NCBI GenBank assembly: GCA_038087875.1
Contig: CM075994.1
Coordinates: 7,132,001 to 7,196,000, forward strand
Direction of reading: 5' to 3'
Length of the DNA stretch: 64,000 bases
DNA from: Malacoraja senta
Taxonomy: Eukaryota
Shown: positions 4,301 through 60,054 of the stretch, piece by piece
Layout of the letters: each line of letters begins with the position of its first letter
Numbering within the stretch: the stretch's first letter is position 1
Notes under the pieces: generated by a model
The model's input: the letters and a program-made list of their open reading frames with translations, nothing else
What the model was told of the DNA's origin: nothing
The model's database searches: none
Position numbers and translations under genes: made by a program

Positions 4301-4781
4301 CCCCCACTGTACAGATACCCTGATACATGAGCAGAACACAAAGTGCTGGAGGAACAGGCAGTATCTGGAAATGGACAGACGACATTTCGGGTCAAAGAGT
4401 AATAGAATTTTACAGCGTGGAAACAGGCCCTTCGGCCCAACTTGACCACACCTGCTAACATGTCCCATCTACACTAGTCCCACCTGCCCGCGTTTGGTCC
4501 ATATCCCTCCAAACCTGTCCTATCCATGTACCTTCGATAGTCCCTGCCTCACCTACATCCTCCGGCAGCTCGTTCCATGCACCCACCACCCTTTGTGTGA
4601 AAATGTGCCCCTCAGGTTCCCATCAAATCACCCCCTCCCCCCCCCCCCCCCCCCACACTTAAACCTATTAGGTCAGCACGGTAGCGCAGCAGTGGAGTTG
4701 CTGCCTTACAAATGATATTCCCTGATGGAAACACACGTTCTGCATCCCTGTTTTCAGATATCCTGATACTTCAAGGGAGAC

Positions 4782-5552
4782 TAGACACAAAAAGCTGGAG
4801 TAACTCAGCGGGACAGGCAGCATCTCTGGAGAGAAGGATCGAGTGATGTTTCGGGACGAGTCCCTTCTTCAGACTGAGAGTTAGGGGAAAGGGAAACAAG
4901 AAATATAGACAGTGATGTAGAGAGATATAGAACAAAGAATGAAAGATATGCAAAAAGTAACGGTGATAAAGGAAACGGGCCACTGTTGGGTGAGAACGAG
5001 AAGCTGGTGCAACTTGGGTAGGGGAGGAATTGAGAGAGAGGGAATGCCAGGGTTACTTGAAGTTAGAGAAATCAATATTCATACCCATGGATTGTAAGGT
5101 GCCCCAGCGAAATATGTGATGTTCCTCCAATTTGCATTTAGCCTCACTCTGACAATGGAGGAGGCCAAGGCCAGGTCAGTATGGGAATGGGTAGGAGAAT
5201 TAAAGTGTTCAACAACCGGGAGATCAATTAGGCCCAGGCAGACTGAGCAATGGTGTTCAGCAAAACGATCGCCCCGTCTACATATGATCTTGCCGATGTA
5301 TAAGAGTCCGCATCTTGAACAACGGATACAATAGATGAGGTTGGAGGAGGTGCAAATGAGCCTCTGCTTAACCTGAAGGGACTCTCGGGTCCCTGGACAG
5401 AGTCGAGGGAGGAGGTGCAGGGACAGGCGGTTGCAGTGGAAGGTACCTGGGGAGGGGGTGGGTTTGTGGGAAGGGATGAGTTAACCAGGGAGTTATGGGG
5501 GAACGGTCTCTGTGGAAGGCGGAAAGGGGTGGAGATGGGAAGATGTGACTAG
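4782..5552 (-). mobile_element. Penelope-like GIY-YIG/pLTR fragment
   Basis: Reverse-complement similarity to 61215-61930. Confidence 0.75.
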
Positions 5553-6440
5553 TCCTCCCTCAATAGAGAGTGTTCGTTATCCTTGATTTGTAGCTCCCGG
5601 TGACTCTACTCAATTCTCCCAGAACAAGAACCTGATTTCCCAACAAATCATCAAAGTTTACACACACACATTAATTAATCCAAGTGCATCTATGACGTTT
5701 AATTCAAAAATGTGTTTCTATTAGAATAAGCCATATATTAATTGCAATACAATGTCAACCAGGCCTACATGTTTTTAAATGCTGAAGCAATAACGTAGTA
5801 TCATCAGAAACAATAGTCTGTTGGAAAGTTACAGATTACTTCTGAAAGGATAATGCGTAGAACACAAAGTGCTGGAGTATCTCAGCGGGTCAAGCAGCAT
5901 TTCTGTAGGATGTGGGCAGGTGACGTTTCAAAATAGGCAGGAGAAAGCTGAAGGGATGGGGCAGGACAAAGCCTGTCAAGTATCCACCCCCCCCCCCCCA
6001 CTTTATTTCCAGCTTTCTCTCCCCTACTACATTAGTCTGAAGAAGGGCCCAACCTGAAATGTGTTCCAGAGACCTGTTGAATTACTCCAACACTTTGTTC
6101 TAAGCAAAAATCCAGCATCTACAGTTTTTTGTGTCTTCAGAAAGAATGGTTCAGGTGAAATATAATTGTTGTCACAGTATCGATGCCTGCAATTTATCCT
6201 ATTGGTTTTGAAAGAGAAATGTTATTAAGAATTGAATTAAAAGGGGGATGTATATAGAAGGAAAAGGGCATAAAATTGTATTAGAAGTATAGAGTGGAAA
6301 TTAAAAATTGATTACGTGCAAAGAACAATACAATGTAATACTGGCAGACAAGATTCAGAACAGGTCCAAAGCATTTTATGTTGATCCAGTAAAAGGATAA
6401 GACCCATTGGGGACCAATCTCTATGTGGAACCACGAGATG

Positions 6441-6750
6441 TAGTTTAGTTTTAGTTTAGAGATGCAGCACGGAAACAGGCCCTTCGGCCCACCGAGACTA
6501 CGCCGACCAGCTATCCCCGCACACTAACGCTATCTTACACACACCAGGGACAATTTACAATTATACCAGCCAATTAACCTACAATCCTGTACGTCTTCGG
6601 AGTGTGGGAGGAACCCAGAGATCCTGGAGAAATCCCACGCAGGTCACGGGGAGAACGTACAAACTCCGCACAGACAGCACCCGTAGTCAGGATCGAACCC
6701 GAGTCATTGGCGCTGTGAGGCAGCAACTCTACCGCTGTGGCACCGTACCA
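6441..6750 (-). mobile_element. HE1-type SINE (mirrored at 57712-58020, +)
   Basis: Consensus match; shared by both arms. Confidence 0.85.
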
Positions 6751-6865
6751 CCCAGGGTGAATGCTTCTAGTGTTAGACGTATAGAGCGGAAATAAAAAAA
6801 TGATAAGTGCAAAGAGTGACACAAAAGTATCACTGGCAGGCAATATTAAGGATAGGTCCAAAGCA

Positions 6866-7189
6866 TTTTATGTTTTAGATTAGTTTAGTTTAGAGATACA
6901 GCTCGGAAACAGGCCCTATGGCCCACCGTGTGCGCACCGACCAGCGATCCCCGCACATTAACACTATCCTACACACAATGGACAATTTTACACATACACT
7001 AAGCCAATTAATCTACAAACCTGTACGTCTTTGGAATATGGGAGGAAACCGAAGATCTCGGAGAAAACCCACGCTTTCACGGAGAGAACGTACAAACTCC
7101 GTACAGACAGCACCCGTATTCGGGATCGAACCTGGGTCTCTGTCGCTGCAAGTGCTGTAAGGCAGCAACTCTACCATTGTGCCACCGTG
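6866..7189 (-). mobile_element. HE1-type SINE, left-arm specific
   Basis: Empty site at about 57585. Confidence 0.85.
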
Positions 7190-8691
7190 TATCCAGTGAA
7201 AGGCTAGGACCCATTAGGGATCCATCTCTATATGGAACCACAAGGTATAGGTGAAGTCTGAAATGAAAACCTCTGTAGGAAGAAACATCAGATGCTGGTT
7301 TACACCGAAGATAGATACAAAAAGCTGGAGTAACTCCACGGGTCAGGCAGCATATCCGGAGAGAAGGAATGGGTGACGTTTCAGGTCGAGACCCTTCGTT
7401 AGACTGAATAGATCATTGTTAGCTCGGGGAAGGTGACAACAAAGCAAACGGATACATTGTAATCAGGGACAGTCAGACTGGTCGGAGAACTGGGAAGGGG
7501 GAGGGATGGAGAGAGAGGGAAAGCAAGGGTTACTTGAAGTTAGAGAAGTCTATATTCATACCGCTGGGGTGTAAGCTGTCCAAGCGAAATATGAGGTGCT
7601 GCTCCTCCAATTTGCGCTGGGCCTCGCTCTGACCTCTGGTCTGTATTTACTGAAGGGAAGGATATTGCATTTCTTGAACCTTAGAACATGTTACCGTTAA
7701 AAAGGGAATATTAGATACCTTGGAGGAGATTTACGATAGATGTAGCCCAGGATGCTATGGGAGGAGATTGCTTTGAGTCTGGCAGAGATTCTTACTGTTC
7801 ATTTTAACAAGTGAAGTGCAAGAAGTCAGGAGGACAACAAATGTGGTCCCTTTATTCGAGAACGGCAGCGGAGATAAACCAGGTAATTCCAGGGCTCTGA
7901 ACCAAACGTCAGTCCTGGAGAAGATATGGGGAAGTAAAGCTGAGGCACAGGACTGCTGTACACTTGCACAAAGGGAAGAGCTTTGTTTGGGGAAGCATTT
8001 GTTTCGAGAGGACTAGAATACAAAAACAGGGATGTAATGAATGATGAGGCTTTATATGGTGCTGGTCAGACCACATTTGGATTATTGCGAGCAATTATCC
8101 CCTTAGCTGATAGCCTCATATCTGAAGAAGGATGTGCTGGTGCTGGAGAGGGTCCAGAGGATGTTTACTAGAATGAGTGGGTTAACATATGATGAGCATT
8201 TGACAGCACTGGGCCTCTACTCGCTGGAGTTTAGAAGGATGAGGGGGAGACCTCATGGAAAATTACCGAATCAGTGAAAGGCCTGGATAGAGTGGATGTG
8301 GAGAGGATGTTTCCCCTAGTGGAAGAGTTTAGGATCAGAGGCCATAACCTCAGAATAAAAGGACGTACCTTTAGAAAGGAGACGAGGAGGAATGTTGTTA
8401 GTCAGAGGGTGGTGAATCTGTGGAATTCATTGCCAAGTCAATGGACATTTTTAAAGCGTAGATTTCTACTCCACCATTCAATCATGGCTGATCTATCTCT
8501 CCCTCCCAACCCCCATTCTCTTGCCTTCTCCACATAACCCCCGACACCCATACTAATCAAGAATCCATCTATCTCTGCCTTAAAAATATCCATTGACTTG
8601 GCCTCCAAAGCCATCTGTGGCAAAGAATTCCACAGATACGCCACCCTAAGACAAAGAAATGTCTCCTATCCTTAAAAGAACAACCTTTAAT

Positions 8692-11364
8692 ACGCAAGTT
8701 CGTTATTCCGACTGCGCATGCCCAGGTCATAGGTCACTTGCGATAAACTTTCACGGCAGCTGTGCTGCTGCGTGTGTGTAGGCCTGCGTTTCATCCATGG
8801 TTGGGGTCAGGCCCGGGTCTCCGGCACAGCGGGTATTGTCGAGTTTCTGCTGTGCTGTCCCCGTTCCCTCCCGGGTGTCCTGTCCCTGTCCAGGGGCGGC
8901 TGGAGGTGTCCGGAGAGGCCCTGGGCTGGCTGGGGCACTGGCCTGGGGTGTTGGCGGCCTTGCGCTTGCAGCCGGCGTGGAGGGGAGGGCGCTAGCTCCG
9001 GCTCGGCTCTGCTGCGGCTCCCAGGGGTGCTGTTCTCTGGTGGGCTGGGGACCGTCGGCTGCGCCTCACGCCTTGTCCAGTGGCTGTCGGTTGGCCCCTT
9101 GGAGCCGACGGGGTCTGAGCGCCGGTCATCGGTAGGGATACACACAGAGTGCTGCAGTGCCTCGACGGGTCAGGCAACATCTCTGGAGAAGGGTCTCGAC
9201 CCGAAATGTAACCCATTCCTTTTCTCCGGGGATACTGCCATCCCGCTCAGTCAAGCCATTGTCCCCACATGCCTCAAAACGTCTACAATAATACCCATAG
9301 CGAAGAAACCAGTTGTTGCCTGCCTAAATGACTACCGCCCTGTCGCCCTGACCCCAATAATAATGAAGTGTTTTGAACGCCTGGTGAAACCCCACATTAC
9401 TGCCAGCCTCCCCTCATCGTTAGACCCCCTCCAGTTTGCCTATCGCCCCAACCATTCTACAGAGGATGCCATCTCTACCACGCTGCACACAGTGCTCACG
9501 CATCTGGAAAACAGAAACACATACGCCAGAATCCTGTACATTGACTTCAGCTCAGCGTTCAACACCATCATCCCACAGAGACTTGTGGAGAAACTAACCC
9601 TGCTGGGCCTCAACACCACCCTGTGTCACTGGATCTTGGACTTTCTGACAGAGAGACCGCAGTCAGTCCGTGTTGGCAAGAACACTTCAGGCTCGATCAT
9701 GCTGAGCACCCGGCTCCCCTCAAGGCTGTGTGCTCAGCCCGCTGTTGTTCACATTGCTCACACATGACTGCTGCCAGATTCAGGGACAATAAGATCATAA
9801 CATTCGCGGATGACACAACAGTGGTGGGACTCATCAGCGGAGATGATGAATCAATGTACAGGGAGGAAGTAAAACAACTAGTGGACCTGGTGCGGCAAAA
9901 ATAATCTAGAATTAAATGTCGACAAAACAAAGGAGATGGTTGTCGACTTCAGGAGGGCGCAGCCAAAGCATGCACCCCTTAACATCAGTGGCGCCACAGT
10001 GGAGAGAGTGGAGACCATAAAGTTCCTCGGGGTGCAAATTACAGACAGCCTCACCTGGTCCAGGAACACCACTGGGACCGTCAAACGGGCCCATCAACGA
10101 CTGCACTTCCTGAGGAAATTAAAACAGGCCTCACTCCCCACCAACATCCTCAGGACTTTCTACAGGGGTACGGTGGAGTCTGTATTCACATACTGCATAA
10201 ATACGTGGTACTCGACCTGCAACTGCTCGGACAGGAAGGCTCTGCAGAGGGTAGTGAGGGGAGCAGAGAAGATCATTGGCGTCTCCCTACCCTCGGTACA
10301 AGTACTGTTCCAGAGCCGCTGTCGGAAAAAAAGCTCAGAGAATTGCTAAGGACAAACTGCACCCCCTCCACATACACCTGGATCTCCTGCCATCATGCAA
10401 GAGATATCGCAGCATCAAAGCCCGGACTACAAGACTGCGAAACAGCTTCCTGCCATATGCTGTGAGGCTGCTAAACAGCCACTCTGTACTCACAGTCACC
10501 TGATTCTGCGGCTTGGTACAGACACTTTAATAACTGGCACTAGCCACTTCAATAGCTGGCACTGGCCACTCAAATCAGCCATCCCGGACATGTTTATGAT
10601 TGGTTTTATTGTATTTTAACGTTGTTTTTACCTACTTTTAACCATTTATACTGTTCCATCAGGGACTGGATTGTTTTTAGTGTTATTATGTGTGAAATGT
10701 TTTAAATTTCATGTGCGATGCTCCGGTATTCCCTGGGAAACGTTTTTTTTCATTTTGCAATGTACAACTGTTGCTTGCAAGATGACAATAAAGGTTGATA
10801 TGATATGATATGATATGATATGCTGCAGCGTTTTGTGTGTGTGCCAGATGATGGATGGGGCTCGGCTTTTGCCAGCGCTGGGTGGGTGGGGGGTTGGTGG
10901 GAAGCCGTTGGGTAGGGTAGGGGGGATGGCGGGAAGCCGTTGGGTAGGGGGGGGTGCCGGTGACAGCCAACCCACCTGGGGGGCGGCGATAGCCGAGCAC
11001 CATCCATCAACAGGCACACTGGGGGGGGGGGGGCAGGGATGGTCCAGTGGTGGTTCGGGCAGCGCTTGCGGCGCTGGGCACCCGGGTTCGATCCTGGCTG
11101 TGGATGAGGCGCGGGTCTGTGTGCTCGCAGCAGTGCAGGCTGGCAATAATATCTCTCCGGCGGTCCAGTCTGTCCCAGCTCTCTCTCGCTATCTGGCACC
11201 CCCCGTTCCTCAGACTAAATATATTTTTACACATAAATTATGAATAAAGATAAGAATTTATACACGGTTTATACAACCAGCGCTTCGTTCGATTTTTCTT
11301 TATCGCGAATGACCTTTGACAAATCCCAGGATTCCTTGCGTTTTTTGGAATACCGAACTCGCTT
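8692..11364. mobile_element. Short-TIR non-autonomous DNA element (superfamily unclear) with nested Rex1 LINE
   Basis: Ends ACGCAAGTTCGTTATTCC / GGAATACCGAACTCGCTT match 15 of 18. Apparent AT duplication in a CR1 remnant (cctttaat|attctgagg). Absent from the right arm at about 52358. Confidence 0.65.
9252..10820 (+). mobile_element. 5'-truncated Rex1/Babar LINE, frameshifted RT
   Basis: [55 protein letters not shown]. 3' tail of aataaa plus (TGATA)n. Confidence 0.92.
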
Positions 11365-11775
11365 ATTCTGAGGCTGTGACCTCTGGTCCTTGACTCTCCC
11401 ACTAGTGGAAACATCCTCTCCACATCCACTCTATCCAGACCTTTCACTATTTGGTAAGTTCCAATGTGGTCCTCCCTCATCCTTCTAAACTCCAGCGAGT
11501 ACAGGCCCAGTGCCATCAAACGCTCATCCTATGTTAACCCACTCATTCCTGGGATCATTCTTGTAAACCTCCTCTGGACCCTCTCCAACACCAGCAAACT
11601 CTTCCTCAGATATGGCCCCTATGGGAATATGTTGAGAAGGACGCAGCTTCGAGGAAGGAAGGTTCGGGGTGAAAGTCTATGGGCAGATTGTGGAGGAGAA
11701 GGACGAGGAATTAGAACGAGGATTTGTGTATCGGTTGAGTGAAACACACTGGAAAACAGCTGGAATGTTTCTCAG

Positions 11776-13113
11776 TTACTTGTTGGAAAAGAACCAGTTC
11801 ATCACGTTTGACATTTTTCTCTTTAACTTTTCTCCAGTACTTTTCCCTCCCGCCGCACGTTCCTTCAAATACTCTGGTGACAGCTTCTCGTTGTTGGCGA
11901 TTATTTCTTTGAACTCTGCCTCCTTCACAGCGGTCAGTGCCTGAATTCGCTCAATGAAGCCTGGCTTTGTCTCATCTTTCTCACCCTGAATCAGGAGGTC
12001 AATGTAAGCCGAGGTGGACAACGGGTTTGGTCTCAGGGCTATTTCTTCAAGTCGTCTAATGCCCTGGGATAAATCTTGAATCAACTCCAGCACTGTGTTC
12101 CCCACCTCAGAACACTCCTGCTCAAGTGACTCCATAACCCTCTGCTGACTCATCTTCTCACCGTATGTCTTCTCATATTTTTCCTTCAGTTTGTTGTACA
12201 TCCTCTTCTCCTTTTTTGTTACACAGACATACCTTTACTTTTCCCTCAGGTGTTTTAGCACGCCGCACTTCCCCGGACAGACTTTACAATTTCCCCACCC
12301 ATCCATTGATGAGCACCAGTATTTGAAAATATAACCTGCAGACGTACAGGGGTCGTGACAACTGTATTCACAAACCGTACAGTTGTTTACAAATGGAGCA
12401 TCGCTGCCAAGTTTCCTCTTTTCTTTAACAGTCACATTGACCTCGTACTCAAAATCTTTATTTTCGTCCAGGTTGGACTGGTTTTGGTTCAGAACTTGTT
12501 GGGTTTTCTTGAGCTCCTCTAAGTTGGTCAGCCCTGCTTGGATCAGAATTTGCAACCCGGCCACTACAGACTCCAGCTGGCTGCGTTCCTTCAGAACCTC
12601 ATTGGTCAGGCACAGGCTTCTCGGCTGCATCGTGCTCAGAGCTGTGAAGAACTTCTTCATACTGTTTGTCCCCATCTTCCAGAACATCAGGTCAAAGTCA
12701 TTATCCTCTTCCCCGCTGTCGTCAGATCTTCCATCGTCACCAGAGGTCGGACACTGGGCAAAAATGGCAGAATTGTTAAACTTGAAGTGTGCTGGCAATC
12801 CCTTTTTGTCTTTGGGGCTGGGTACCTGGGCGGCTTTCAGGGTCTCCAGAACTGGGGGGCGCTGCCCGTCCGCGAACGTCACCAGTACCTGAATGTTCTC
12901 CGCAACATCTTTGCCAAAAATGGAAAGGATGGAATCAAAGACATATTTCTGTGTCGGTGTCAGGCGAGCCAAGGAGGCTTGGATGACGAAACAGATCGCG
13001 TCGATCTGATCAACGCCCTGTGGGGAAGCGAAGAACTCGCGGATGTGGTCAGTGATCTGTCGATCCCGGCTGATGCCCCTGGTGTCCCCGAATCCTGGCG
13101 TGTCGATGATAGT
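11776..13113 (-). pseudogene. Paralogous GTPase copy with in-frame nonsense codon; 5' part hidden in the assembly gap
   Basis: Frame is open from the gap edge (TIIDTPGFGDTRGISRD...) to TAA at 12235-12237 (TAC/Tyr in the right copy). It continues in the same frame to the native stop at 11776. I counted 36 differences in 244 aligned aa versus the right copy. Confidence 0.8.
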
Positions 13114-13313
13114 NNNNNNNNNNNNNNNNNNNNNNNNNNNNNNNNNNNNNNNNNNNNNNNNNNNNNNNNNNNNNNNNNNNNNNNNNNNNNNNNNNNNNNN
13201 NNNNNNNNNNNNNNNNNNNNNNNNNNNNNNNNNNNNNNNNNNNNNNNNNNNNNNNNNNNNNNNNNNNNNNNNNNNNNNNNNNNNNNNNNNNNNNNNNNNN
13301 NNNNNNNNNNNNN
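13114..13313. other. Assembly gap (200 N)
   Basis: Run of N. Its flanks map to about 50617 and about 43838 of the right arm. Confidence 0.99.
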
Positions 13314-13772
13314 TGTCCCTAGCGTGTGCAGGATAATGCTAGTATATGGGGTGATCACTGGTTGGCGGGCCGAAGGGCCCGTTTCCGCTCTGTATGTCTA
13401 AACTAAACGAAAAAATATATCCCTGTGGAGTTACTGTACACTGTACACTGTAGTGCTGTGGTCAGGATGAACCCCTGCCTTTAGCATTAAAACAACAACA
13501 CACATACAGATGGATACACCCCCTCCCCCACTGTACAGATACCCTGATACATGAGCAGAACACAAAGTGCTGGAGGAACAGGCAGCATCTGGAAATGGAC
13601 AGACGACATTTTGGTTCATAGTGTAATATAATTTTACAGCGTGGAAACAGGCCCTTCGGCCCAACTTGCCCACACCCGCTAACATGACGTTTCGGGTCGA
13701 GACCTTTTAGCTGAAGATTCCCCCACGATTCGTTTCTTTTCTATTCCAGGGAAACTAACCTGCATCACTCAC

Positions 13773-13965
13773 CGATCGAGGAAGAGACCGACTGCAGCTG
13801 TAAAGGGATTGCAGCGTTGGCGATGGGACGAATGGTCTTGCTTGGAGATCCTCCCCGACACAGAACCTCACTGGACCGACCAAAACCCCCCGGCGCTAGG
13901 AGCTGAGATGTACCGAGACTCCTTTCAGCAAACACAAGAATCGACTCCAACGCCAGCGGCGATAT
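13773..13965 (-). other. Mirror copy of the candidate 5' exon (left GTPase copy)
   Basis: Reverse complement of 43180-43371 with the same splice sites. It is 193 nt (1-nt indel), so the frame is not conserved. Confidence 0.45.
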
Positions 13966-14911
13966 CTGCAGAGAAAGGGTATTTATTCTCCAGTCATCTC
14001 CACACCAGAGATTGGAATGAATTCCGTGAAAATACACTTTAACTCTCGGTCTTAATGTGCAGAAACAATGAACAGTCTCTCATGTAGTAGGTGACCACAA
14101 ACGAGGGCGGTGCTCACCAGATGCAGCAAGCTGGCTTGTGTATAGGTTTCTTCAACTTTAAGTAACCCTTGCTTTGCCTCTCTCTCCACCCCCACCCCCC
14201 AGTTCTCTGACTAGTGCCACTATCCTTAGTGTCAACGAGATGAGGAAAACCTTTTCGCCCAGAGAATTGTGAATCTGTGGAATTCTCTGCCACAGAACGC
14301 AGTGGAGGCCAATTCACTGGATGTTTTCAAGAGTTAGAAGAAGGGTCTCGATCCGAAACGTCACCCATTCCTTATCTCTAGAGATGCTGCCTGTCCCACC
14401 GATTTACTCCAGCTTTTTGTGTCTATCTTCAGAGAGTTAGATTTAGCTCTTAGGGCTGACGGAATCAAGGGCTATGGGGAGAAAGCAGGATCGGGATACT
14501 GATTTTGGATGATCAGCCATGATCATATTGAATGGCTCGAAGGGCTGAATGGCCTACTCCTGCACATATGTTCTAGATTTCTATGTCCTTTTGATTACTT
14601 TGTGCAGGAAAGAACTGCAGAAACTGGTAAACACTGAGGATAGACACAAAATGCTGGAGTAACTCAACGGGACAGGAAGCATCTCTGGAAAGAAGGAATG
14701 GGTGATGTTTCAGGTCGAGACCCTTTTTCAGACTGAGAGTCAGGGGAGAGGGAGACACAGAGATAAGGAAGGGTAAGGTGTGAAAATTACAGATGAAGTC
14801 AGGAAGGTGGTCAGTCTGAAGAAGGGTCTCGACCCGAAACACCACCCATTCCATCTCTCCAGAGATGCTGCCTGTCCCGCTGAGTTACTCCAGCATTTTG
14901 TGCCAAACCGC

Positions 14912-15597
14912 AGTTTAGTTTAGTTTAGAGATACAGCATGGAAACAGGCCCTTCGGCCCACCGAGTCCGCACTGACCAGCGATCACCCTATACACTGACA
15001 CTATACTACACACACAAGGGACAATTTACAATTATACCAAGCCAATTAGCCTACAAATCAGTACGTTTGTTGTATCGGAGGAAACTTGAGCACCTGGAGA
15101 AAACCCACACAGATGACGGGGAGAATGTAGAAACTCCGTACAGACAGCACCTGTAGTCAGGATTGAACCTGAGTCTCTGGCGCTGTGAGGCAGCAATTCT
15201 ACCGCTGCGCCACCGTGCCGCACAGTTGCGTGGGTTTAGTCACCCTCCACGCCCACAGTAATCGGTCGAGACTCAAGTTTCTTTCCTCGTCAGTTTTTTT
15301 GGAGCACTGTGGCGCAGAGGTAGGGTTGCTGCCTCACAGCGCCAGAGACCTGGGTTCAATCCTGACTACAGGTGCTGTCTGTACGGAGTTTGTACGTTCT
15401 CTCCGTGACCGCATGGGGTTTCACTGAGATCTTCAGTCTCCTCCCACACTCCAAAGACCTTCAAGTTTGTAGATTAGGCTTGGCATAAATATAAATTGCC
15501 CCTTGTGTGTGTAGCGTGGTGTTTATGTGCGTGGATCGCTGGTCGGTGCGCTCGGTGGGCTGAAGGGCCTGTTTCCGCGCTGTATGTCTAAACTGAA
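14912..15597. mobile_element. Head-to-head pair of HE1-type SINEs
   Basis: Minus copy 14912-15220 and plus copy 15305-15597. Confidence 0.85.
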
Positions 15598-17890: not shown

Positions 17891-17966
17891 ACTCGGTAAG
17901 CAAGTCCCAAAACTACCGCAATTAATGACGTTGTTTGGCTCCGTAAATCTGAACCCAGCCCTTTAT

Positions 17967-45288: not shown

Positions 45289-45330
45289 TGGCTCTAGCCA
45301 TCTATGCTTCGGTGAGGGAAGCAGGTCGGT

Positions 45331-47648: not shown

Positions 47649-47661
47649 GAAACTGAAAAGT
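47649..47661 (+). promoter_or_regulatory. ISRE/IRF-E-like motif
   Basis: GAAACTGAAAAGT matches GAAANNGAAA. It is followed by kB-like GGGGAACGCC and lies 2.4 kb upstream of the GTPase coding exon. Confidence 0.35.
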
Positions 47662-48908: not shown

Positions 48909-49674
48909 GTTCCATACACCCACCACCCTCTGTGTGAAAAGGTTACCCCTCAAATTCCTATTAAATCTTTTCCCCCTGGATAGAGTGGATGTGGAGAGGA
49001 TGTTTCTACTAGTGGGAGAGTCTAGGACGAGAGGTCATAGCCTCATAATGAAAGGACGTTCTTTTGGGAAGGAGATGAGGTGGTATTTTGTTCGTCAGAG
49101 GGTGGTGAATCTGTGGAATTCTTTGTCACAGAAGGCTTTGGAGGCAAAGTCAGTGGATATATATAAGGTAGAGAAAGATTCTTGATTAGTACGGGTATCA
49201 AACGTTATAGGAAGAAGGCAGGAGAATGGGGTTATTAGGGAGACAAGGATGAATGGCGGAATATACTTGATGGGCCAAATGGCCTAATTCTACTATCACT
49301 TATGATCTTCACCTTGTTTCCCTTCACTTGTTTGAGGGGTATCTCCACCGGACCCTGCCCCCCAATGTACAGCAGCGGTAGGACCCTAGACAGTGGTCCT
49401 CCCCCACCGAGCCTTGGCGTTGGCTGCACCAAGCTTCACTGCGTCCCTCAGCACGTACTCCTGCAGTCTGGAGCGGGCCAGTCGGCAACATTTCCTGATG
49501 GATTTCTGGCTGAAATTCCCTTCCTGAAAGGAAGGAATTTTCAAGGCAGGTTGTGGGACCAGATGGATTGTTCTTACCCAGAGTTTGTAGGGACTCAATG
49601 GGCAGAATGGCCTTCATCCTCACGAAAATCATACTGTGATTCTCAGTGTAATAATTAACATCTCTCTACATAAG

Positions 49675-49970
49675 CACTGGCGCAGGGGTAGAGTTGCTGC
49701 CTCACAGCGCCAGAGACCCGGGTTAGATCCTGACCACGGGTGCTGTCTGTACGGAGTTTGTACGTTCTCCCCGTGACCTGCGTCGATTTTCTCCAAGATC
49801 AACGGTTTCCTCCCACACTCCAAAGATGTACAGGTTTATAGGTTTATTGGCTTGGTATGAATGTAAATTGTCCCTAGCATGTGTAGGATAGTGTTAATGT
49901 GCGGGGATCGTGGCCGCCACAGACTCGGTGGGCCGAAGGGCCTGTTTCCGCACTGTATCTCTAAACTAAA
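49675..49970 (+). mobile_element. HE1-type SINE just upstream of the GTPase splice acceptor
   Basis: A-box-like TGGCGCAGGGGTAG, B-box-like GGTTAGATCC, V core and tail. Confidence 0.85.
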
Positions 49971-50085
49971 CCTTTCTGCTCACGTCTTCAAAAAGCCGTG
50001 CGTCAAGTGGATTCAGCTTCATATTTTATTCCCTTTTCTGTTTCAGATCACTGGATTTCGTTGAGTGTCCACTTCCGGTTTACTG

Positions 50086-51957
50086 ATGAGTGCGAGTAGT
50101 GATGAGGGACCAAGTCATAGTGGAGCCGACGTATTTCATTACAGGAATGAATACAAGGAAGTACCTTCGATCGAGTCCATCGCATTGGACGGATCATGGG
50201 AGAAGATTCAGACAACAGACAGACAATGCCACTATAGTTCACACAGACCAAAGAGAATTGCCCTGAAACTTCGCGAACAAGCTGAATTAATATCCAGAAA
50301 AAACCCTTTCATTTACAAGCTCAACCTAGAAAGGGAGGTGTTTAATCAGTGCAAGCATCTTGTGAAATGCTCCTTAGGAAAGCCCACCACTATGCACAAG
50401 ATGAAGACAATTATGTTGCTGGGGGCAACTGGGTCAGGAAAGACAGCCCTCATCAACGGGATGATCAACTACATCTTGGGCGTGGAGTGGGAGGACAACT
50501 TCAGATACAAGTTAATACAGGAGGAGATGGGAAAATCCCAGGCTGAGAGCCAGACATCCTCCATCACTGCCTACCATCTCCACCACCAGGTAGGGTTTAA
50601 CATTGACTGCTCACTGACTATCATCGACACGCCTGGGTTTGGGGACACCAGGGGCATCAGCCAGGATCAACAGATCACTGACCACATCCACGAGTTTTTC
50701 ACTTCCCCACAGGGCATTGATCAGATCGACGCGGTCTGTTTCATCGCCCAAGCCTCCCTGGCTCGCCTGACCCCAACACAGAAATATGTCTTCGAATCCA
50801 TCCTTTCCATTTTTGGCAAAGATATCGCGGAGAACATTCAGATACTGGTGACGTTTGCAGACGGGCAACACCCCCCAGTTCTGGAGGCCCTGAAAGCCGC
50901 CCAGGTACCCTGCCCCAAAGACAAAAAGGGATTGCCAGTACACTTCACGTTTAACAATTCTGCCATTTTTGCCCAGCGTCCGACCTCTGGCGACGATGGA
51001 AGATCTGAAGACAGCGGGGAAGAGGATAATAACTTTGGTCTGATGTACTGGAAGATGGGGACAAACAGTATGAAGAAGTTCTTCACAGCTCTGAGCACGA
51101 TGCAGGCGAGGAGCCTGCTCCTGACCAGAGAGGTTCTGAAGGAACGTAGCCAGCTGGATTCTGTAGTGGCCGTGCTGCAGACTCTGATCCAAGCAAGGCT
51201 GACCAAATTAGAGGAGCTCAACAAAACCCAACAAGTTCTGAACGAAAACCAGTCTAACCTGGACGAAAATAAAGATTTTGAGTACGAGGTCGATGTGAGT
51301 GTTAAAGAAAAGAGGAAACTTGGCAGCGATGCTCCATTAGTAAACAACTGTACGGTTTGTGAATACAGTTGTCACGACCCCTGTCCATATGCATGCTATA
51401 TTTTCAAATACTTCTGTTCATCAATGGACATACGGGGAAATTGTGTAGTTTGTCCGGGGAAGTGCACCTTTCTTAAACACCTAAGGGAAGAGTACAGGTA
51501 TGTCTGTGTAACAAAAAAGGAGAAGAGGACATACAACGAACTGAAGGAAAAGTATGAGAAGGCGTACGGTGAGAAGATGAGCCTGCAGAAGGTTATGGAG
51601 TTACTTAAGAAGGATATTACTGAGGTGGAGAACACAGTGCTGGAGCTGATTCAAGAATTATCCCATGGCATTAGACGACTTGAAGAAATAGCCCTGAGAC
51701 CAAATCTGTTGTCCACCCCGGCTTACATTGACCTCCTGATTCAGGTTGAGACAGACGAGGCGAAGCCAGGCTTCATTGAGCGAATCCAGACACTGACCGC
51801 TGTGAAGAAAAAGGCAGAGTTCAGAGAAAAGATCGCCAACAACGAGAAGCTGCTACCAGAGTATTCGAAGGAAGATGCAGCAGGAGGGAAAAGTACTGGA
51901 GCAAAGTTAACGAAAAAAATGCCAAACGTGATGGATTGGGTCTCTTCCAATAAGTAA
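50086..51957 (+). CDS. Septin/AIG1-like TRAFAC P-loop GTPase (623 aa) with Cys/His-rich cluster and coiled coils; single coding exon
   Basis: Uninterrupted ORF with G1 GATGSGKT, G2 SQT, G3 DTPGFGD, G4-like TFAD and FNNS. C-terminal CTVCEYSCHDPC...C...CVVCPGKC...H cluster is flanked by heptad-like helices. Splice acceptor (ttttattcccttttctgtttcag) ends at 50046. An in-frame TGA at 50062-50064 precedes the first ATG at 50086. Confidence 0.88.
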   Translation: MSASSDEGPSHSGADVFHYRNEYKEVPSIESIALDGSWEKIQTTDRQCHYSSHRPKRIALKLREQAELISRKNPFIYKLNLEREVFNQCKHLVKCSLGKPTTMHKMKTIMLLGATGSGKTALINGMINYILGVEWEDNFRYKLIQEEMGKSQAESQTSSITAYHLHHQVGFNIDCSLTIIDTPGFGDTRGISQDQQITDHIHEFFTSPQGIDQIDAVCFIAQASLARLTPTQKYVFESILSIFGKDIAENIQILVTFADGQHPPVLEALKAAQVPCPKDKKGLPVHFTFNNSAIFAQRPTSGDDGRSEDSGEEDNNFGLMYWKMGTNSMKKFFTALSTMQARSLLLTREVLKERSQLDSVVAVLQTLIQARLTKLEELNKTQQVLNENQSNLDENKDFEYEVDVSVKEKRKLGSDAPLVNNCTVCEYSCHDPCPYACYIFKYFCSSMDIRGNCVVCPGKCTFLKHLREEYRYVCVTKKEKRTYNELKEKYEKAYGEKMSLQKVMELLKKDITEVENTVLELIQELSHGIRRLEEIALRPNLLSTPAYIDLLIQVETDEAKPGFIERIQTLTAVKKKAEFREKIANNEKLLPEYSKEDAAGGKSTGAKLTKKMPNVMDWVSSNK

Positions 51958-53419
51958 CTGAGAAACATTCCAGCTGTTTTCCAGCATGTTTCACTCAACC
52001 GATACACAAATCCTCATTCTAATTCTTCGTCCTTCTCCTCCCCCATCTGCCTGTAGCCTTTCACACCGAACCTGCCTACCTCGATGCTGCCTCCTTCTCA
52101 ACATATTCCCATAGGGCCCATATCTGAGGAAGGGTTTGCTGGCATTGGAGAGGGTCCAGAGGAGGTTTATGAGAATGATCCCAGGAATGAGAGGTTAACA
52201 TATGATGAGCGTTTGATGGCACTGGGCCTGTACTCGCTGGAATTTAGAAGGATGAGGGGACACCTCATTGAAACTTACCGAATAGTGAAAGGCCTGGATG
52301 TGGAGAGGTGGTTTCCACTAGTGGGAGAGTCTAGGACCAGAGGTCATACCCTCAGAATTAAAGGATGTTCTTTTAAGAAGAAGATGAGGAGGAATTTCTT
52401 TCATCAGAGGGTGGTGAATGTGGAATTCTTTGTCGCAGACGGCTGTGGAGGCCAAGTAAATGAATATTTTTAAGGCAGAGATAGATGGATTATTGTTTAA
52501 TACAGGTGTCGGAGATTATGGGGAGAAGGCTCGAGAATGGGGTTGGGAGGGAGAGATCGATCAGCCGTGATTGAATGGTAGAGTGGAAATCTACGCTTTA
52601 AAAATATCCATTGAATTGGCAATGAATTCCACAGATTCACCATCCTCTGACTAACAACATTACTCCTCGTCTCCTTTCTAAAGGTACGTCCTTTTATTCT
52701 GAGGTTATAGCCTCTGATCCTAGACCCTCCCACTAGGGGAAACATCCTCTCCACATCCACTCTATCCAGGCCTTTCACTGATTCGGTAAGTTTCAATGAG
52801 ATCCCCCCCTCATCCGTCTAAACTCCAGCGAGTAGAGGCCCAGTGCCATCAACTGGTTATCATATGTTATTCATTCCTGGGATTATTCTAGTGAACATCC
52901 TCTGGACCCTCTCCAACCGTATGCGGACCTGGCACCGACAGACAAGAAGCCGAAGCAAAGAAGTCGAAGCCAAAGAACCGAATGGAAATGAGGCCGAAAC
53001 GCCAATAAACCGAAAGAGTCCGAAGACGAAACGCCTACTAACCGAAAGGATGGGACGCCTAAATGCAAACTAACTGAAAGGGCGGGACGCCTAAAAGCCA
53101 ATGAACCGAAAAGCTGCATCGCCTAAAAGCAAACTTACCGAATGGCCTCTCTGTCGAAACGCCACCTACCCGAAAGGCGTCGTCGCCTACAGGCCAAAGG
53201 ACCGACTGCCGCTCAACAGAAAAGTCCAATAACGGACATGACATTGCCGGGTGGCCGGACTTGTCAGCGAGTGGTCCAGACCCCCACGTCCATCACTTCA
53301 CTGTGAAGGCATGAAGATTATCCCAAACCTCCGCTCCACTTTCGGCCACTTTCAACTTGGTGCTTGCGTTCAGATTGCCCAGTCACCTATGGCTTGTGTG
53401 GAAAAATGAACCCCACGCT

Positions 53420-53610
53420 CCCGTCTCCCCCTTCTCTCTCTCCCCCTCTCTCTCTCCCTTCTCTCTCTCCCTTCTCTCTCCTCCTCTCTCTCCCCTCTTC
53501 TCTTTCTCCTCCTCTCTCTCCACTCTTCTCTCTCTCCTCTCTCTTCCCCTCCTCTCCCCCCCCACTCTCTCTCCCTTCTCTCTCTCTCCCCTTCTCTCTC
53601 TCCTCTGTCT
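53420..53610. repeat. CT-rich low-complexity tract
   Basis: Almost pure pyrimidine run. Confidence 0.9.
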
Positions 53611-53940
53611 CCACCCGCAGGAGCGTCCCTCAGTCACTGACCGCGATGCACCGCCATCGGACCCCAACCTCCACACCAGGGTGATTTCCCCTCCCCCCCT
53701 CCGACCCCCGGACCCCGACACCCACACCGGGTGCTTCACCCCGTCCGCGGGAACAGATGTTTTATTTATTACTGTCTCAGTGCTTGCGGAACGCACCCCA
53801 GCTCCCACGCACAAAACAGGCAGCATCTCTGGAGAGAAGGAATGGGTGACGTTTCGTGCCGAGACCATTCTTCAGAGTGCTTCTGAAAGGTCTCGACCCG
53901 AAACGCCACCCATTCCTTCTCTTCAGAGATGTTGCCCGGT

Positions 53941-54255
53941 GAGGCTGCTGTCACACAGCGACCCAGCCGGTGAGACCACTATCACACAGTGACCCAGCCG
54001 GTGAGACTGCTGTCACACAGTGACCCAGCCGGTGAGACTGCTGTCACACAGTGACCCAGCCGGTGAGACTGCTGTCACACAGTGACCCAGCCGGTGAGGC
54101 TGCTGTCACACAGCGACCCAGCCGGTGAGACCACTATCACACAGTGACCCAGCCGGTGAGACTGCTCTCACACAGCGACCCAGCCGCTGAGACTGCTGTC
54201 ACACAGTGACCCAGGCGGTGAGACTGCTGTCACACAGTGACTCAGCCAGTGAGAC
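53941..54255. repeat. 31-bp minisatellite, 10 copies
   Basis: Unit GAGACTGCTGTCACACAGTGACCCAGCCGGT. Variant units 1-2 recur as units 6-7. Confidence 0.95.
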
Positions 54256-55462
54256 AATGTTCATGCCTTCACAGTGATGTGATGGACGTGGGGGTCTGGA
54301 CCAATTGCTGACAAGGCCCGCCCCCTGGCATCGTCATGTCCGTTATTGGACTTTACTTTTGGGCGGCAGTCGGTCCTTAGGCCTGTAGGCGACGACGCCT
54401 TTCGGGTAGGTGGCGTTTCGACAGAGCGGTCATTCGGTAAGTTTGCTTTTAGGTGACGCAGCATTTTGGTTCGTTGGCTTTTAGGCGTCCTGCCTTTTCG
54501 GTTAGTTTGCATTTAGGCGTCCCATCCTTTCAGTTCGTAGGCGTTTCGTCTTTGGACTCTTTCGGTTTATTGGCGTTTCGGCCTCATTTCCATTCGGTTC
54601 TTTGGCTTCGACTTCTTGTCTGTCGGCGCCACGTCCGGGTACCTCTCCAACACAAGCACATCCTTCTTCAGATATGAGGCTATCTGCCAAGGAGATAATT
54701 GCTTGCAATAATCCAAATGCAGTCTGACCAGCAGCATATAAAGTCTCATCATTACATCCCTGTTTTTGTATTCTGGTTCTCTAGAAACAAATGGTTCTCC
54801 AAACAAAGCTCTTCCCTCTGTGCAAGTGTACAGCAGTCCTGTGCCTCAGCTTTACTTCCCCATATCTTCTCTATGACTGGCGTTAGGTTCAGAGCCCTGG
54901 AATTACCTGGTTTGTCCCCGCTGCCCTTCTCGTTTAAAGGGACCACATTTGCTGTCCTCCTGATTTCTTGCACTTCACTGAACAGTAAGAATCTCTGCCA
55001 GGTTCAAAGCAATCTCCTCCCATAGCAGCTTGGGCTACATCCATCGTAAATCTCATCCAAGATATCTAATATTTCCTTTTTAATGGTAACATGTTCTAAG
55101 GTTCAAGAAATGCAATATCCTTCCCTTCAGTAAATACAGACCAGAGGTCAGAGTGAGGCCCAATGCAAATTGGTGGAGCAGCACCTCATATTTTGCTTGG
55201 GCAGCTTACACCTCAGCAGTATGAATTTAGACTTCTCAAACTTCAAGTAACCCTCGCTTTCCCTCTCTCTCCATCCTTCACCCTTCCCAGTTCTCCCACT
55301 AGTCCCTGACTGTCCCTGATCACATTGTATCTGTTTGTTTGTTGTCACCTTCTCCGAGCGAACAATGATCTATTCAGTCTGAAGAAGGCTCTCGACACGA
55401 AACGTCACCCATTCCCCCTCTTCAGAGATGCTGCCTGACCAGCTGAGTTACTCCAGCTTTTT

Positions 55463-57444
55463 AGACAATAGGTGCAGGAGTACGCCTTTCGGCTCTTTAA
55501 GCCAGCACCACCATTCAATGTGTTCATGGCTGATCATCCCCAATCAGTACCCCGTTCCTGCCTTCTCCCCATATCCCCCGACTCCGCTATCTTTAAGAGC
55601 ACTATCTAGATCTCTCTTGAAAGTATCCAGAGAAGCGGCCTCCACTGCCCTCTGAGGCAGGGAATTTCACACTCACAACTCTCTGTGTGAAAAAGTGTTT
55701 CCTCGTCTCTGTTCTAAATAGCTTACCCCTTATTCTTAAACTGTGGCCCCTGGTTCTGGACTTCCCCACATCGGGAACATGTTTCCTGCCTCTATCGTGT
55801 CCAAACCCTTAATAATCTTATATGTTTCAATAAGATCCCCTCTCATCCTTCTAAACTCCAGAACAAACAAGCTCAGCTGCTCCATTCTCTCAGCATATGA
55901 CCGTCCCACCATCCCGGGAATTAACCTCGTAAACCTACGCTGCACTCCCTCAATAGCAAGTATGTCTTGAATCAAAATTCATACCGCTGTGTTATAAGCT
56001 GCTCAAGCGAAATATGAGGTTCTGCTCCTCCAAATTGCGCTGGGCCTCACCCTGACCTCAACCAAAACTGCACACAATACTCCAGGTGTGGTCTCACTAG
56101 GGCCCTATACAACTGCAGAAGGACCTCTTTGCTCCTAAACTCAACTCCTCTTGTTATGAAGGCCAACATGCCATTCGCTTTCTTCACTGCCTGCTGTACC
56201 TGCATGCTTACTTTCATTGTCTGATGAACAAGGACCCCCAGAACCCGTTGTACTTCCCCTTTTCCCAATTTGACACCATTTAGATAATAATCTGCCTTCC
56301 TGATTTTGCTACCAAAGTGGATAACCTCACATTTATCCACATTAAACTGCATCTGCCATACATCTGCCCACTCACCCAACCTGTCCAAGTCACCCTGCAT
56401 TCTCATAGCATCCTCCTCACAGTTCACACTGCCCCACAGCTTTGTGTCATCTGCAAATTTGCTAATGTTACTTTGAATCCCTTCATCTAAATCACTGATA
56501 TATATTGTAAATAGCTGCGGTCCCAGCTCCGAGCCTTGCGATACCCCACTAGTCACTGCCTGCCATTCTGAAAGGGACCCGTTAATCCCTACTCTTTGTT
56601 TCCTGTCTGCCAACCACTTCTCTATCCATGTCAGCACTCTACCCCCAATACCATGTGCCCTAATTTTGCCCACTAGTCTCCTGTGTGGGACCTCATCAAA
56701 TGCTTTCTGAAAGTCCAGGTACACTACATCCACTGGCTCTCACTTGTCCATTTTGCTAGTTACATCCTCAAAAAATTCCAGAAGATTAGTCAAGCATGAT
56801 TTCCCCTTCGTAAATCCATGCTGACTCAGACCAATCCTCTTACTACTATCCAAATGTGCTGCTATTTAATCTTTTATAACTGACTCCAGCATCTTCCCCA
56901 CCACCGATGTCAGGCTAACTGGTTTGTGATTCCCTGATTTATCTCTCCCGCCTTTCTTAAAAAGTGTGATGACATTAGCTACCCTCCAATCCACAGGAAC
57001 TGATCCTGAATCTATGGAATATTGGAAAAGAATCACCAATGCATCCACAATTTCTAGAGCCACTTCCTTAAGTACCCTGGGATGGAGACCATCAGGCCCT
57101 GGGGATTTTTCAGCCTTCAGTCCCATCAGTCTACCCAACACCATTTTATGCCTAATGTGGATTTCCTTCAGTTCCTCTGTCACCCCAGATCCTCTGGCCA
57201 CTACTATATCAGGAAGATTGTTTGCGTCCTCCTTAGTGAAGACAGATCCAAAGTACCTGTTCAACTCATCTGCCATTTCCTTGTTCACGCTAATAAATTC
57301 ACCTTTTTCAGTCTTCAAGTGTCCAACTTTGGTCTTAACTATTTTTTTTCTCTTCACATACCTAATATCCTCCTTTATATTCTTTGCTAGCTTACCTTCT
57401 TACCTAATCTTTTCTCCCCGTATTGCCTTTTTAGTTATGTTCTG
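55463..57444 (-). mobile_element. 5'-truncated CR1 LINE, right-arm specific
   Basis: RT ORFs 56047-56733 and 56866-57357. 3' tail at 55463. Empty site in the left arm at about 7320. Confidence 0.9.
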
Positions 57445-58338
57445 TTTTGTGTCTATCTTCGGTGTAAACCAGCATCTGCAGTTCCATCCTACACAGCGGA
57501 AAGGTATTCATTTCAGACTTCACCTATACCTTGTGGTTCCACATAGAGATGGGTCCCTAATGGGTCCTATCCTTTTACTGGATACACATAAATAGCTTTG
57601 GACCAGTTCTTAATATTGCCTACCAGTGATACTTTTGTGTCCCTCTTTGCACTTATAATCCAATTTTAATTACCACTCTATACGTCTAACACTAGAAGTA
57701 TTCACCATGGGTGGTACGGTGCCACAGCGGTAGTGTTGCTGCCTCACAGCGCCAGAGACTCTGGTTCGATCCTGACTACGGGTGTTATATGTGTGGAGTT
57801 TGTACGTTCTCCCCGTGACCTGCGTGGGTTTTCTCCAGGATCTCCGGGTTCCTTCGACATGCCAAAGGCATACAGGTTTGCAGGTTAATTGGCTGGTATA
57901 ATTGTGAATTGTCCCTAGTGTGTGTAAAATAGCGATAATGTGGGGGGTTCACTGGTTGGAGCGGTCTCGGTGGGCTGAAGGGCCTGTTTCCCTGCTGCAT
58001 CTCTAAACTAAAACTAAACTACATCTCGTGGTTCCACATAGAGATTGGTCTCCAATGGGTCTTATCCTTTTACTGGATCAACATAAAATGCTTTGGACCT
58101 GTTCTGAATCTTGTCTGCCAGTAATACTTTGTATTGTTCTTTGCTCTAATCAATTTTTAATTTCCACTGTATATTTCTAATACAATTTTACCCCCTATTC
58201 CTTCTATATACTTCCCCCTTTTAATTCAATTCTTGATAACTTTTCTCTTCCAAAACCAAAAGGATAATTGGCAAACATCGATAGCGTGACAATTATCTCA
58301 CCTGAACCAGACATTATTCTTTCTGAAGACACAAAGAA

Positions 58339-58990
58339 TCCACCGGGTGGAGCCACCAATGGCTGCCTCGACAACAGTCTGTCTGTCCTTTCCTTCTTTG
58401 TGTTTTTAATTGTATGTGTTAAATGTATGTTTTTAGTGTTCTTTATTTTTTTTAATGTGGGGGTGGGGGGGGGGAGGGGTTGGGTTGGGGGAAACTTTTT
58501 TCTAACCTTTTACCTCGACGGGGATGCGATTTTGTTCCGTATCTTTGCTGGAGACCGTTTTTGAGAGCTCCAACTGTGGTCGCCTACGGGACTTTCACAT
58601 CACAGAGCCCGCGTTCCCTTTGCCATCCAACCGTGGGTGCTTGCGGACTTAACATAAAAAGCTTGCGGTCTCTGGTCAGAGACCAACTTCGGGAACTCCA
58701 AGCTGCAGGACCTTCGACCGCCCCAACACGAGGGCTTCGACCGCCGGCTGCGGGAGCTTCGATCGTCCCGATTGCGGATGGTTTGACTGCCCCGACCGAG
58801 GGAGAATAAAGAGGAAGAAGCTTGGACTTTTTTTGGCATTCCATCACAGTGAGGAACGTGGAATCCACTGTGGTGGATGCTTATGTTAACTTTGATGTAG
58901 TTGTGTATCTTGTTGCTTTTTTCCCATTGTGGGTGTATGGTAATTCGCATATCACTCTACCTTAATTGGTACATGTGACTATAAAGACCT
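58339..58990 (+). mobile_element. Unclassified insertion, probably a non-autonomous retroposon with Rex1-like 3' end
   Basis: Absent from the left arm (about 6122). Ends ..catgtgactataaagacctt, like the Rex1 tails elsewhere in the window. Confidence 0.5.
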
Positions 58991-60054
58991 TTGCAGATGC
59001 TGTATTTTTGTTTAGAACAAAGTGTTGGAGCAATTCAACGGGTCAGGCAGCATCTCTGGAAGACATGGATAGGCGACGTTTCAGGTTGGGACCCTTCTTC
59101 ACACTAATGTAGTAGTGGAGAGAAAGCTGGAAATAAAGTGGCGGGCGGGCGGGGCTGCTTGACGGGCTTTGTCCTGCCCCATCCCTTCAGCTTTCTCCTG
59201 CCTATTTTGAAACGTCACCTGTCCACATCCTACAGAAATGCTGCTTGACCCGCTGAGTTACTCCAGCACTTTGTGTTCTATGCATTATCCTTTCAGAAGT
59301 AAACTGTAACTTTCCAATGGACTATTGTTTCTGATGATACTACGTTATTGCTTCTGCATTTTAAAGCATGTAGGCCTGGTTGACATTGTATTGCAATTAA
59401 TATATGGCTTATTCCAATAGAAACACATTTTTGAATTAAATGTCATAGATGCACTTGGATTAATGAATGTGTGTGTGTAAACACTTTAATGCTAAACACT
59501 TTAATTCTCCTTCCCATTCCCACCCTTACATTTCTGTTTTAGGCTTCCTCCATTTTTATAGTGAGGCTAAAAGCAAATTGGAAGAACATCTCATATTTTG
59601 CTTGGATTTCTCGAACTTCATTTCCTCTAACTTCTCTAAATTCACGCAACCCCTGCATTTCCTCTCTCTCCATACCCCTCCCCCACCCACCCAAATCGCA
59701 CCAGCTTCTCGTTCTCACCCAACAAACAGTCAACAATGGCCTGTTTCCTTTATCGTCATTACTTTTTTTTGCATATCTTTCATTCATTGTTCTATATCTC
59801 ACTACATCACCATCTATATCTCTCGTTTCCCTTTCCGGATAACTCTCAGTCTGAAGAAGGGTCTCAACCAGAAACAACACCCGTTCCTTCTCTCCAGCAA
59901 TGCTGCCTGTCCCGCTGAGTTACTCCAGCTTTTTGTGTCTACTCTCTCTTGAGTATTGATCAGGATATCTGAAAACATGGAGGCAGAACAACATGTGTGT
60001 TTCCATCAGGCAAGATCAGTGAGGGAAAGGTAATGAAGAGAGGGCAACAGAGAG

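Follow-up and report, generated by a model that had tools for sequence, protein, structure and literature searches.

Birth-and-death immune gene clusters of mixed orientation are familiar from the fish NLR, TRIM and GIMAP genes, and conversion-maintained palindromes of the mammalian Y/X ampliconic type have arms that are >99% identical or that carry recent conversion tracts. Both kinds of system bear on the stretch analyzed here, a window of 64,000 nucleotides (nt) in the skate Malacoraja senta (positions 7,132,001-7,196,000 of contig CM075994.1, hereafter C18; genome 1.94 Gb), which holds two outward-pointing GTPase genes, the left gene and the right gene, in the arms of an inverted repeat. 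The full-length relatives of these genes resemble stonustoxin (SNTX) in their N-terminal half. SNTX-like domains combined with MMR_HSR1 and FN3 in place of SPRY are noted for reptiles (PMC7579844), sntx genes are described as clustered, three-exon genes in which a short coding exon precedes a long one (PMC10566576), and evidence for a SNTX-like defence role in fishes is said to be growing, with an immune role argued to come before venom use (PMC12107551); two further papers (PMC11258412, PMC8225006) gave no information on the fusion. We found no description in the literature of the skate cluster, its GTPase-only derivatives or their junction, on which subscription papers and supplements may bear. 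The overall explanation that we favor, with reasonable confidence, is that the window contains two head-to-head units of a gene array and that the right gene is a chimeric, GTPase-only derivative of an in-frame deletion, likely still working as an immune GTPase and probably interferon-induced.

Gene structure and junction of the right gene

Genes of this family form units of 15-25 kb, each with a promoter, a non-coding exon 1, a short exon 2 (the start codon plus 30 codons) and one long exon 3, which in full-length members has ~1,200-1,270 codons and brings the product to ~1,250 amino acids (aa). The position of exon 1 comes from RNA-like contigs of relatives, whose loose ends stop at the acceptor. 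In full-length members, Pfam identified Stonustoxin_helical, Thioredoxin_11, fn3 and AIG1/Septin domains above cut-off, and MACPF_SNTX at 19-28 bits, around its cut-off of 27. The best PDB sequence matches of these members are stonustoxin alpha/beta (4wvm, E 1e-84 or better), and we interpret them as joining a stonustoxin-like, predicted pore-forming half to a GTPase. They fall into two types, a long type with two FN3 domains and a short type with one FN3 domain plus a remnant. The SNTX-like/FN3/GTPase architecture occurs in sharks, rays, chimaera, bony fish, amphibians, reptiles and ratites (120 matches listed of 1,120 hits), and nearly all of the proteins among the matches listed are named “uncharacterized.” The nearest database proteins to the window GTPase are from the skates Amblyraja and Leucoraja (81-88%).

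The right gene departs from this architecture. Neither it nor the other fused proteins described below have a Pfam match to MACPF/CDC, helical or thioredoxin domains, and TBLASTN found no trace of the toxin-like half within the window. Its frame runs through an FN3-remnant linker, a beta-rich lead-in, the G domain (~50401-50973), a helical stalk, a cysteine-rich insert and a coiled coil. After the short remnant of exon 2 and a filler (Table 1), the coding sequence picks up again at 50107, within the linker that precedes the GTPase, and is in frame with the start codon. Contigs of relatives break off exactly at 50092 and at 50107, and then run into normal exon 2 and exon 3 sequence. Among the 16 exon-2 copies that we found, 13 continue normally and three are fused; the right-gene pattern occurs twice in the assembly, in the window and on scaffold C1992 (at 147,152).

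The two sides of this junction have different nearest relatives. On the 5' side, the promoter forms a clade with those of long-type genes (support 95/93), and grouping it with short-type promoters was rejected by the approximately unbiased (AU) test (p-AU 0.0007 and 0.018); the promoter groups for this test were chosen with the first tree already in view, which weakens the result. Intron blocks of the right gene likewise align at 88-96% to the long type vs. 81-90% to the short type. On the 3' side, the coding part groups with the short type (100/100), to which it is 90-92% identical vs. 74% to the long type. Based on these alignments and trees, the right gene appears to be a chimera whose 5' and 3' sides come from different paralog lineages; whole-side gene conversion could also give this pattern. 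The simplest explanation is a single double-strand-break repair between two same-strand neighbors, in which the toxin-like half of the first gene was lost together with the front of the second. Templated filler is a mark of end-joining repair, and end joining with templated filler would be the route taken here. We hold the structural account of the locus with high confidence.

A probable second in-frame deletion and fused genes in other skates

Scaffold C1992 carries a second GTPase-only gene, the C1992 left gene (C1992:64115-65845), which is open over 577 aa and has its own in-frame junction. In this gene, 11 coding nt are kept and coding resumes ~130 nt further into exon 3 than in the right gene (based on one contig). 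Two independent deletion events are likely, because neither deletion is nested within the other and a common clade that includes the C1992 left gene was marginally rejected (p-AU 0.049); a second deletion atop the first could also account for what is observed. The junction of the C1992 left gene was absent among 240 database proteins. In the same set, two proteins open with the junction peptide of the right gene: XP_032903417.1 of A. radiata (619 aa) and XP_055487978.1 of L. erinacea (623 aa). For the four sequences that share this junction (the right gene, the C1992:147,152 copy and the two foreign proteins), a single origin was not rejected (p-AU 0.45). The deletion would then have preceded the split of these skate lineages, with selection keeping the frame open afterward.

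Retention of the fused frame

The four fused sequences differ by at least 179 amino-acid changes without a single stop, where 9-11 stops are expected under neutrality. This test overstates the case, because the two foreign proteins were ascertained as open (the unascertained pair alone expects ~4 stops) and because conversion from paralogs can add changes without stops. The ratio of nonsynonymous to synonymous substitution rates (dN/dS) in the G domain is 0.3-0.5 for pairs that include a fused gene and 0.35-0.6 for pairs of full-length genes, and the G1, G3 and G4-like motifs are intact in both fused copies of the M. senta genome.

The fused right gene might instead be a slowly decaying pseudogene that stayed open by chance and through conversion from intact paralogs, a reading that we regard as doubtful. 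Several observations pull in its direction and weigh against a retained function: between the two fused copies of the genome, dN/dS over the whole frame is 0.74, and their coding sequences diverge by 6% vs. 2-3% in the introns, with patches closer to other paralogs; changes are only a little less dense in the G domain (0.22 per site) than in the linker (0.28); the switch-II region is damaged in both foreign orthologs, which argues against an active enzyme, the G3 glycine being changed in the L. erinacea protein and four residues being lost just after G3 in the A. radiata protein; and nine of the 14 neighbors in the surrounding array are broken. Further points on the same side are that the fused four form no supported clade in the free tree, that the base at -3 before the ATG of the right gene is C vs. 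G in paralogs, and that we saw no transcript or protein of a fused gene. A search of sequencing runs listed no RNA run with the sequence, and no run contained half of the query words; among the contigs listed for seven runs of relatives, none bridges the junction, which counts neither for nor against it. Decay fits poorly with four lineages that are open over ~620 codons with only in-frame length changes, with a promoter, an exon 1 and both splice sites that are kept, and with a product type that arose twice, in frame, within 11 nt of the frame start. Judged from sequence, the right gene is likely a working GTPase-only immune gene, and we lean toward its being functional at present.

The cysteine-rich insert (~51310-51495) has dN/dS of up to 2.9 in some paralog pairs, with very few synonymous changes. 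It is a candidate for a variable, ligand-facing part of the protein, and positive selection is suggested.

GTPase fold and promoter

The predicted structure of the right gene product (predicted local distance difference test score 76) has a disordered stretch over the first 50 residues, followed by a G domain, long helices and the cysteine-rich insert. Foldseek identified Toc34/Toc33 (E 5e-7), GIMAP2 and septin 3 as the best matches of the G domain, and profile searches matched septins; the part beyond the G domain, in the C-terminal half, matched no solved structure. The G1 motif, the DxxG form of G3 and the fold are those of the TRAFAC Toc34/AIG1/septin group. The AIG1 profile scored 36.7 bits (cut-off 27) over positions 1-127 of 212 only. 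Septins proper have a septin unique element and an AKAD-type G4; the right gene matches the Septin profile over positions 6-78 of 280 only, has the G4-like motif TFAD and falls outside septins proper. Relatives that consist of the GTPase part alone (500-650 aa, ~50% identity) occur widely, from corals to platypus, and the truncated form therefore resembles a viable and probably ancestral architecture.

Among the promoters of 16 units of the family, 12 have a gamma-activated sequence (GAS)-like site and five a perfect interferon regulatory factor (IRF)-element-like site, ~45-60 nt before a TATA-like site; GAS-like and IRF-like sites appear in 12% and 3% of shuffles, respectively, and the 16 units are not independent. 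The promoter of the C1992 left gene has a perfect IRF-element-like site. That this site is degenerate in the window copies counts against induction of the right gene, which is nonetheless probably interferon-induced as judged from its promoter motifs.

The inverted arms and the scaffold gap

Comparison of the window with itself revealed a reverse-strand collinear chain (4713-19430 vs. 60018-39131), as expected from the original prediction that unique blocks recur in reverse order and strand. The arm-to-arm alignment consists of 13 blocks of ≥200 nt, totaling 9,221 nt at 89.9% identity. This chain holds low-copy blocks, and the best same-strand chain of the window is almost wholly repeats. Each arm has one outward-pointing GTPase reading frame, as predicted, that of the left arm being incomplete (Table 1). 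The arms are diverged, with an amino acid identity of 82.7% (367/444) in place of the ~85% first counted. Differences in arm length had been read as arm-specific insertions; among 12 such differences, ~5 are insertions (6874-7186, 8692-11364, 17968-18185, 52916-54641 and 55463-57444), and ~7 are deletions in the opposite arm, because other units of the cluster hold the sequence at the matching site. Only the insertion at 52916-54641 has a convincing target-site duplication (10 nt); the search at the other length differences mostly returned chance repeats of 5-6 nt. Gene conversion between the arms, raised as a possibility beforehand, left no near-identical tract in the arm-to-arm alignment, in which the longest exact match is 111 nt and the best 200-nt window is 98% identical.

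The 5' part of the left gene is absent from the assembly at this locus, where a scaffold gap interrupts the gene exactly opposite 6,777 extra nt of the right arm. The layout could on this basis be an assembly artefact, with haplotypes or paralogous contigs scaffolded in opposite directions. Consistent with such an origin, the contig right of the gap (70 kb, bounded by gaps) is 95.0% identical to C1992 over 51 kb, the contig left of the gap is only 88-92% identical to it, and a C1992 gene (C1992:210786-213148) also stops at a gap, within the conserved G3 stretch where the left gene of the window starts (13113). We consider an artefact unlikely: the inner part of the mirror is confined to a single contig, the complete head-to-head layout is seen on C1992 without a gap over the span, and the arms, at 88-92%, are far from the allele level. 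Our yardstick for that level is another duplicated piece of the family, C999:33.7-38 kb, which is 99.6% identical to C18:1,045.7-1,050 kb and is probably an unpurged haplotig; measured against it, C1992 (95%) would be a paralogous block or a very old haplotype. The gap-free layout of C1992 also agrees with the earlier view that the duplication is old and no collapsed-read artefact. The head-to-head architecture thus appears real, and the join across the gap is unproven: the join may be wrong, the architecture not. The gap-broken C1992 gene and the left gene overlap by 44 nt at their ends, but this overlap carries no diagnostic weight, because paralogs typically differ by one mismatch in this stretch.

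The mirror is, as these comparisons indicate, a composite and not the single palindrome with two sister arms that had been proposed, because its inner and outer parts differ in identity and in nearest relatives. The outer arms are 88.2% identical over 4.9 kb and the inner arms 91.7% over 4.3 kb. Other units match the outer left arm equally well or better than the right arm (50617-60018) does; in all five outer blocks tested, another unit was closer to the left arm, and the inner blocks were mixed. The coding part of the left gene is 90.1% identical to the right gene vs. 91.0-92.4% to six other paralogs. Eight short-type coding sequences form a star tree in which the sole resolved pair is the right gene and its C1992 counterpart (100/99); the left and right genes as a clade are unsupported, yet not rejected (p-AU 0.20). 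The left arm consists of two pieces on either side of the gap. Its inner piece is up to 97.7% identical to the region upstream of a long-type gene at C18:7,632 kb, and its insertion at 17968-18185 is also present at C18:7,642 kb and C1992:98 kb.

If an entire gene unit had been duplicated once, long ago and in inverted orientation, with the gap hiding ~6.8 kb matching 43839-50617 and the left gene mirroring the right gene, this would explain why collinearity holds to either side of the gap, why the exon-1 copy of the inner left arm faces the gap and why the two genes were not rejected as a clade. Such a history is very improbable given the difference between outer and inner arms (88% vs. 92%), the closer units found in all outer blocks tested, a left gene of the short type next to an inner arm that is sister to a long-type upstream region, the presence of the right-gene junction only twice in the assembly, and C1992, on which the gap-free inner arm carries neither an exon 1 nor a gene and is 27 kb away from a left gene with its own promoter and a different junction.

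The surrounding gene array

A genome search with the window GTPase, in which 75 candidates were scored, gave 56 matches. Within the fetched stretches, C18:7.00-7.64 Mb contains 14 GTPase-bearing copies over 640 kb, eight on the plus strand and six on the minus strand, and six of 13 neighboring pairs are inverted. Three copies are intact and full length, one is the intact right gene, one is open without the tail and nine have stops or frameshifts; the count skips some intervals between copies, and frameshifts may be assembly errors. These many clustered paralogs, intact and broken side by side, bear out the earlier proposal of a birth-and-death gene family, which is probably an immune one. Further copies occur in a second group at C18:1.04-1.42 Mb and on unplaced scaffolds.

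Repeated copying of the 15-25 kb gene units, on either strand, means that an anti-diagonal appears wherever two opposed units are compared. At C18:7,265-7,342 kb, an inverted pair without a gap aligns over 11,731 nt at 87.4%, longer than the pair in the window, and three other opposed pairs that were tested align over 5.7-8.9 kb. By this comparison, the inverted repeat of the window is an ordinary by-product of a mixed-orientation array, inflated by the scaffold join.

A third subfamily (C18:7,050, 7,270, 7,333, 7,421, 7,461 and 7,616 kb) keeps the toxin-like half, FN3 and the G domain. It ends soon after the G domain, and its cysteine-rich/coiled-coil tail has decayed; one copy is open over 1,002 codons. 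On scaffold C2774, the regions at 125-159 kb and 168-197 kb form near-mirror arms (95.5-97% over ~23 kb) with two tail-to-tail long-type genes. These arms are separated by a 200-N gap; they could be a palindrome of recent origin or a pair of haplotypes joined back to back in scaffolding.

Other features of the window

The coordinates of the genes, arms and intervening features are collected in Table 1. The reverse-transcriptase frames of the spacer are presumably of Rex1/RTE, CR1 and L1-like types. A young retroelement at 29524-32786, which we take to be CR1-type, has a 665-aa reverse-transcriptase frame; it is 97-98% identical to copies at C18:7,015-7,018 kb, on C170 and on C2774, and is absent at the matching C1992 site. 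At the inner end of the left arm, a 156-nt tandem unit is present in 2.3 copies (19235-19587), and a same-strand relative of this unit lies at 45068-45564, inside intron 1 of the right gene. Pfam also identified a GIY-YIG endonuclease frame at 61161-61742, which probably belongs to a Penelope-like element. Rfam returned no matches at gathering score in the window.

Table 1. Positions of genes, arms and associated features within the window
Feature	Position	Strand	Remarks
Outer left arm	4713-13113		3' flank and 3' part of a short-type paralog; ordinary paralog-level similarity to the right arm
Left gene	11776-13113	-	3' 445 codons only (G3 motif to end); in-frame stop at 12235-12237
Scaffold gap	13114-13313		200 N, inside the left gene; other gaps in fetched regions likewise 200 N
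Inner left arm	13314-19630		Promoter/upstream unit; sister of the upstream regions of the C18:7,632 kb long-type gene and the right gene
Non-coding exon 1 copy	13773-13940	-	GT donor; faces the gap; 5' end approximate
Spacer	19631-39058		~19 kb, mostly retroelements; reverse-transcriptase frames at 20166-22016 (-), 29572-32696 (+) and 37405-38703 (-)
Inner right arm	39059-43839		Holds the right gene's promoter and first exon, with the region upstream
Predicted core promoter	43098-43165	+	Degenerate IRF-element-like site; GAS-like site 43115-43123; TATA-like site 43158-43165
Non-coding exon 1	43190-43371	+	GT donor at 43372; 5' end approximate
Intron 1	43372-50046	+	GT..AG; closest to intron 1 of long-type (two-FN3) genes
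Exon 2 remnant	50047-50092	+	39-nt leader, ATG at 50086, 7 coding nt to the 5' breakpoint
Right gene frame	50086-51957	+	Open, 623 aa, GTPase-only
Filler	50093-50106	+	14 nt at the deletion junction; 9 nt repeat the start-codon surroundings
Outer right arm	50617-60018		Right gene (3' part) with its 3' flank; short-type lineage

Discussion

If the right gene is translated as predicted, its product would be a cytosolic GTP-binding switch of the Toc34/GIMAP/septin group that acts without a pore of its own. It could work by itself as a membrane-associated immune GTPase, in the manner of the GTPase-only relatives found in other vertebrates, or as a partner or damper of its full-length paralogs. A far broader possibility, which we put forward as improbable speculation, is that an unstudied, interferon-induced system exists in jawed vertebrates, in which a septin/GIMAP-like GTPase gates the perforin-like pore-former to which it is fused, and that skates, repeatedly and under selection, cut away the pore half to yield GTPase-only tuners or dampers of the full-length proteins, with a sensor/decoy logic like that of paired NLRs but based on a pore-forming GTPase.

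The notable feature of the locus is the apparently recurrent, in-frame removal of the toxin-like half in a little-studied toxin-like/FN3/GTPase family, with one product common to three skates. For a jawed-vertebrate fusion family that is largely “uncharacterized,” the locus supplies an exon map and interferon-type promoter motifs. Two probably separate deletions of exactly the predicted pore-forming half amount to a natural experiment, which makes the function of the GTPase alone and the control of the pore testable. They also offer a case, dated and resolved to the base, in which a new domain architecture may have formed via end joining between neighboring paralogs.

Comparison with described systems places the locus among several of them. 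The vertebrate SNTX-like/FN3/GTPase proteins have the architecture of the full-length neighbors, whereas the right gene is without any toxin-like domain. The full-length paralogs share with stonustoxin and verrucotoxin of stonefish three homologous N-terminal domains, a short coding exon followed by a long one, and a clustered arrangement; however, stonustoxin proper ends in a C-terminal PRYSPRY domain, in place of which the full-length paralogs carry FN3, GTPase, cysteine-rich and coiled-coil parts, and the toxin-like domains are absent from both genes of the window. A shared G-domain fold links the right gene to the GTPase-only “septin-type G domain” proteins of fish (si:ch73-170d6.2 type, DUF8206-bearing), to GIMAP/AIG1, to Toc34 and to septins, although only the first half of the AIG1 profile and the first quarter of the Septin profile match it. 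Unlike in these GTPase-only relatives, the GTPase-only state in skates would be secondarily derived from a toxin fusion, and twice. With the fish NLR, TRIM and GIMAP clusters, the array has in common its many copies, a star-like tree, broken copies, patchwork similarity and a deeply diverged duplicate block; it differs in that a deletion between neighbors seems to have made a new domain architecture that was kept across genera. Finally, the window shares inverted arms, outward genes and a spacer with the palindromes of the mammalian Y/X, but its arms are 88-92% identical, lack conversion tracts and are of composite origin.

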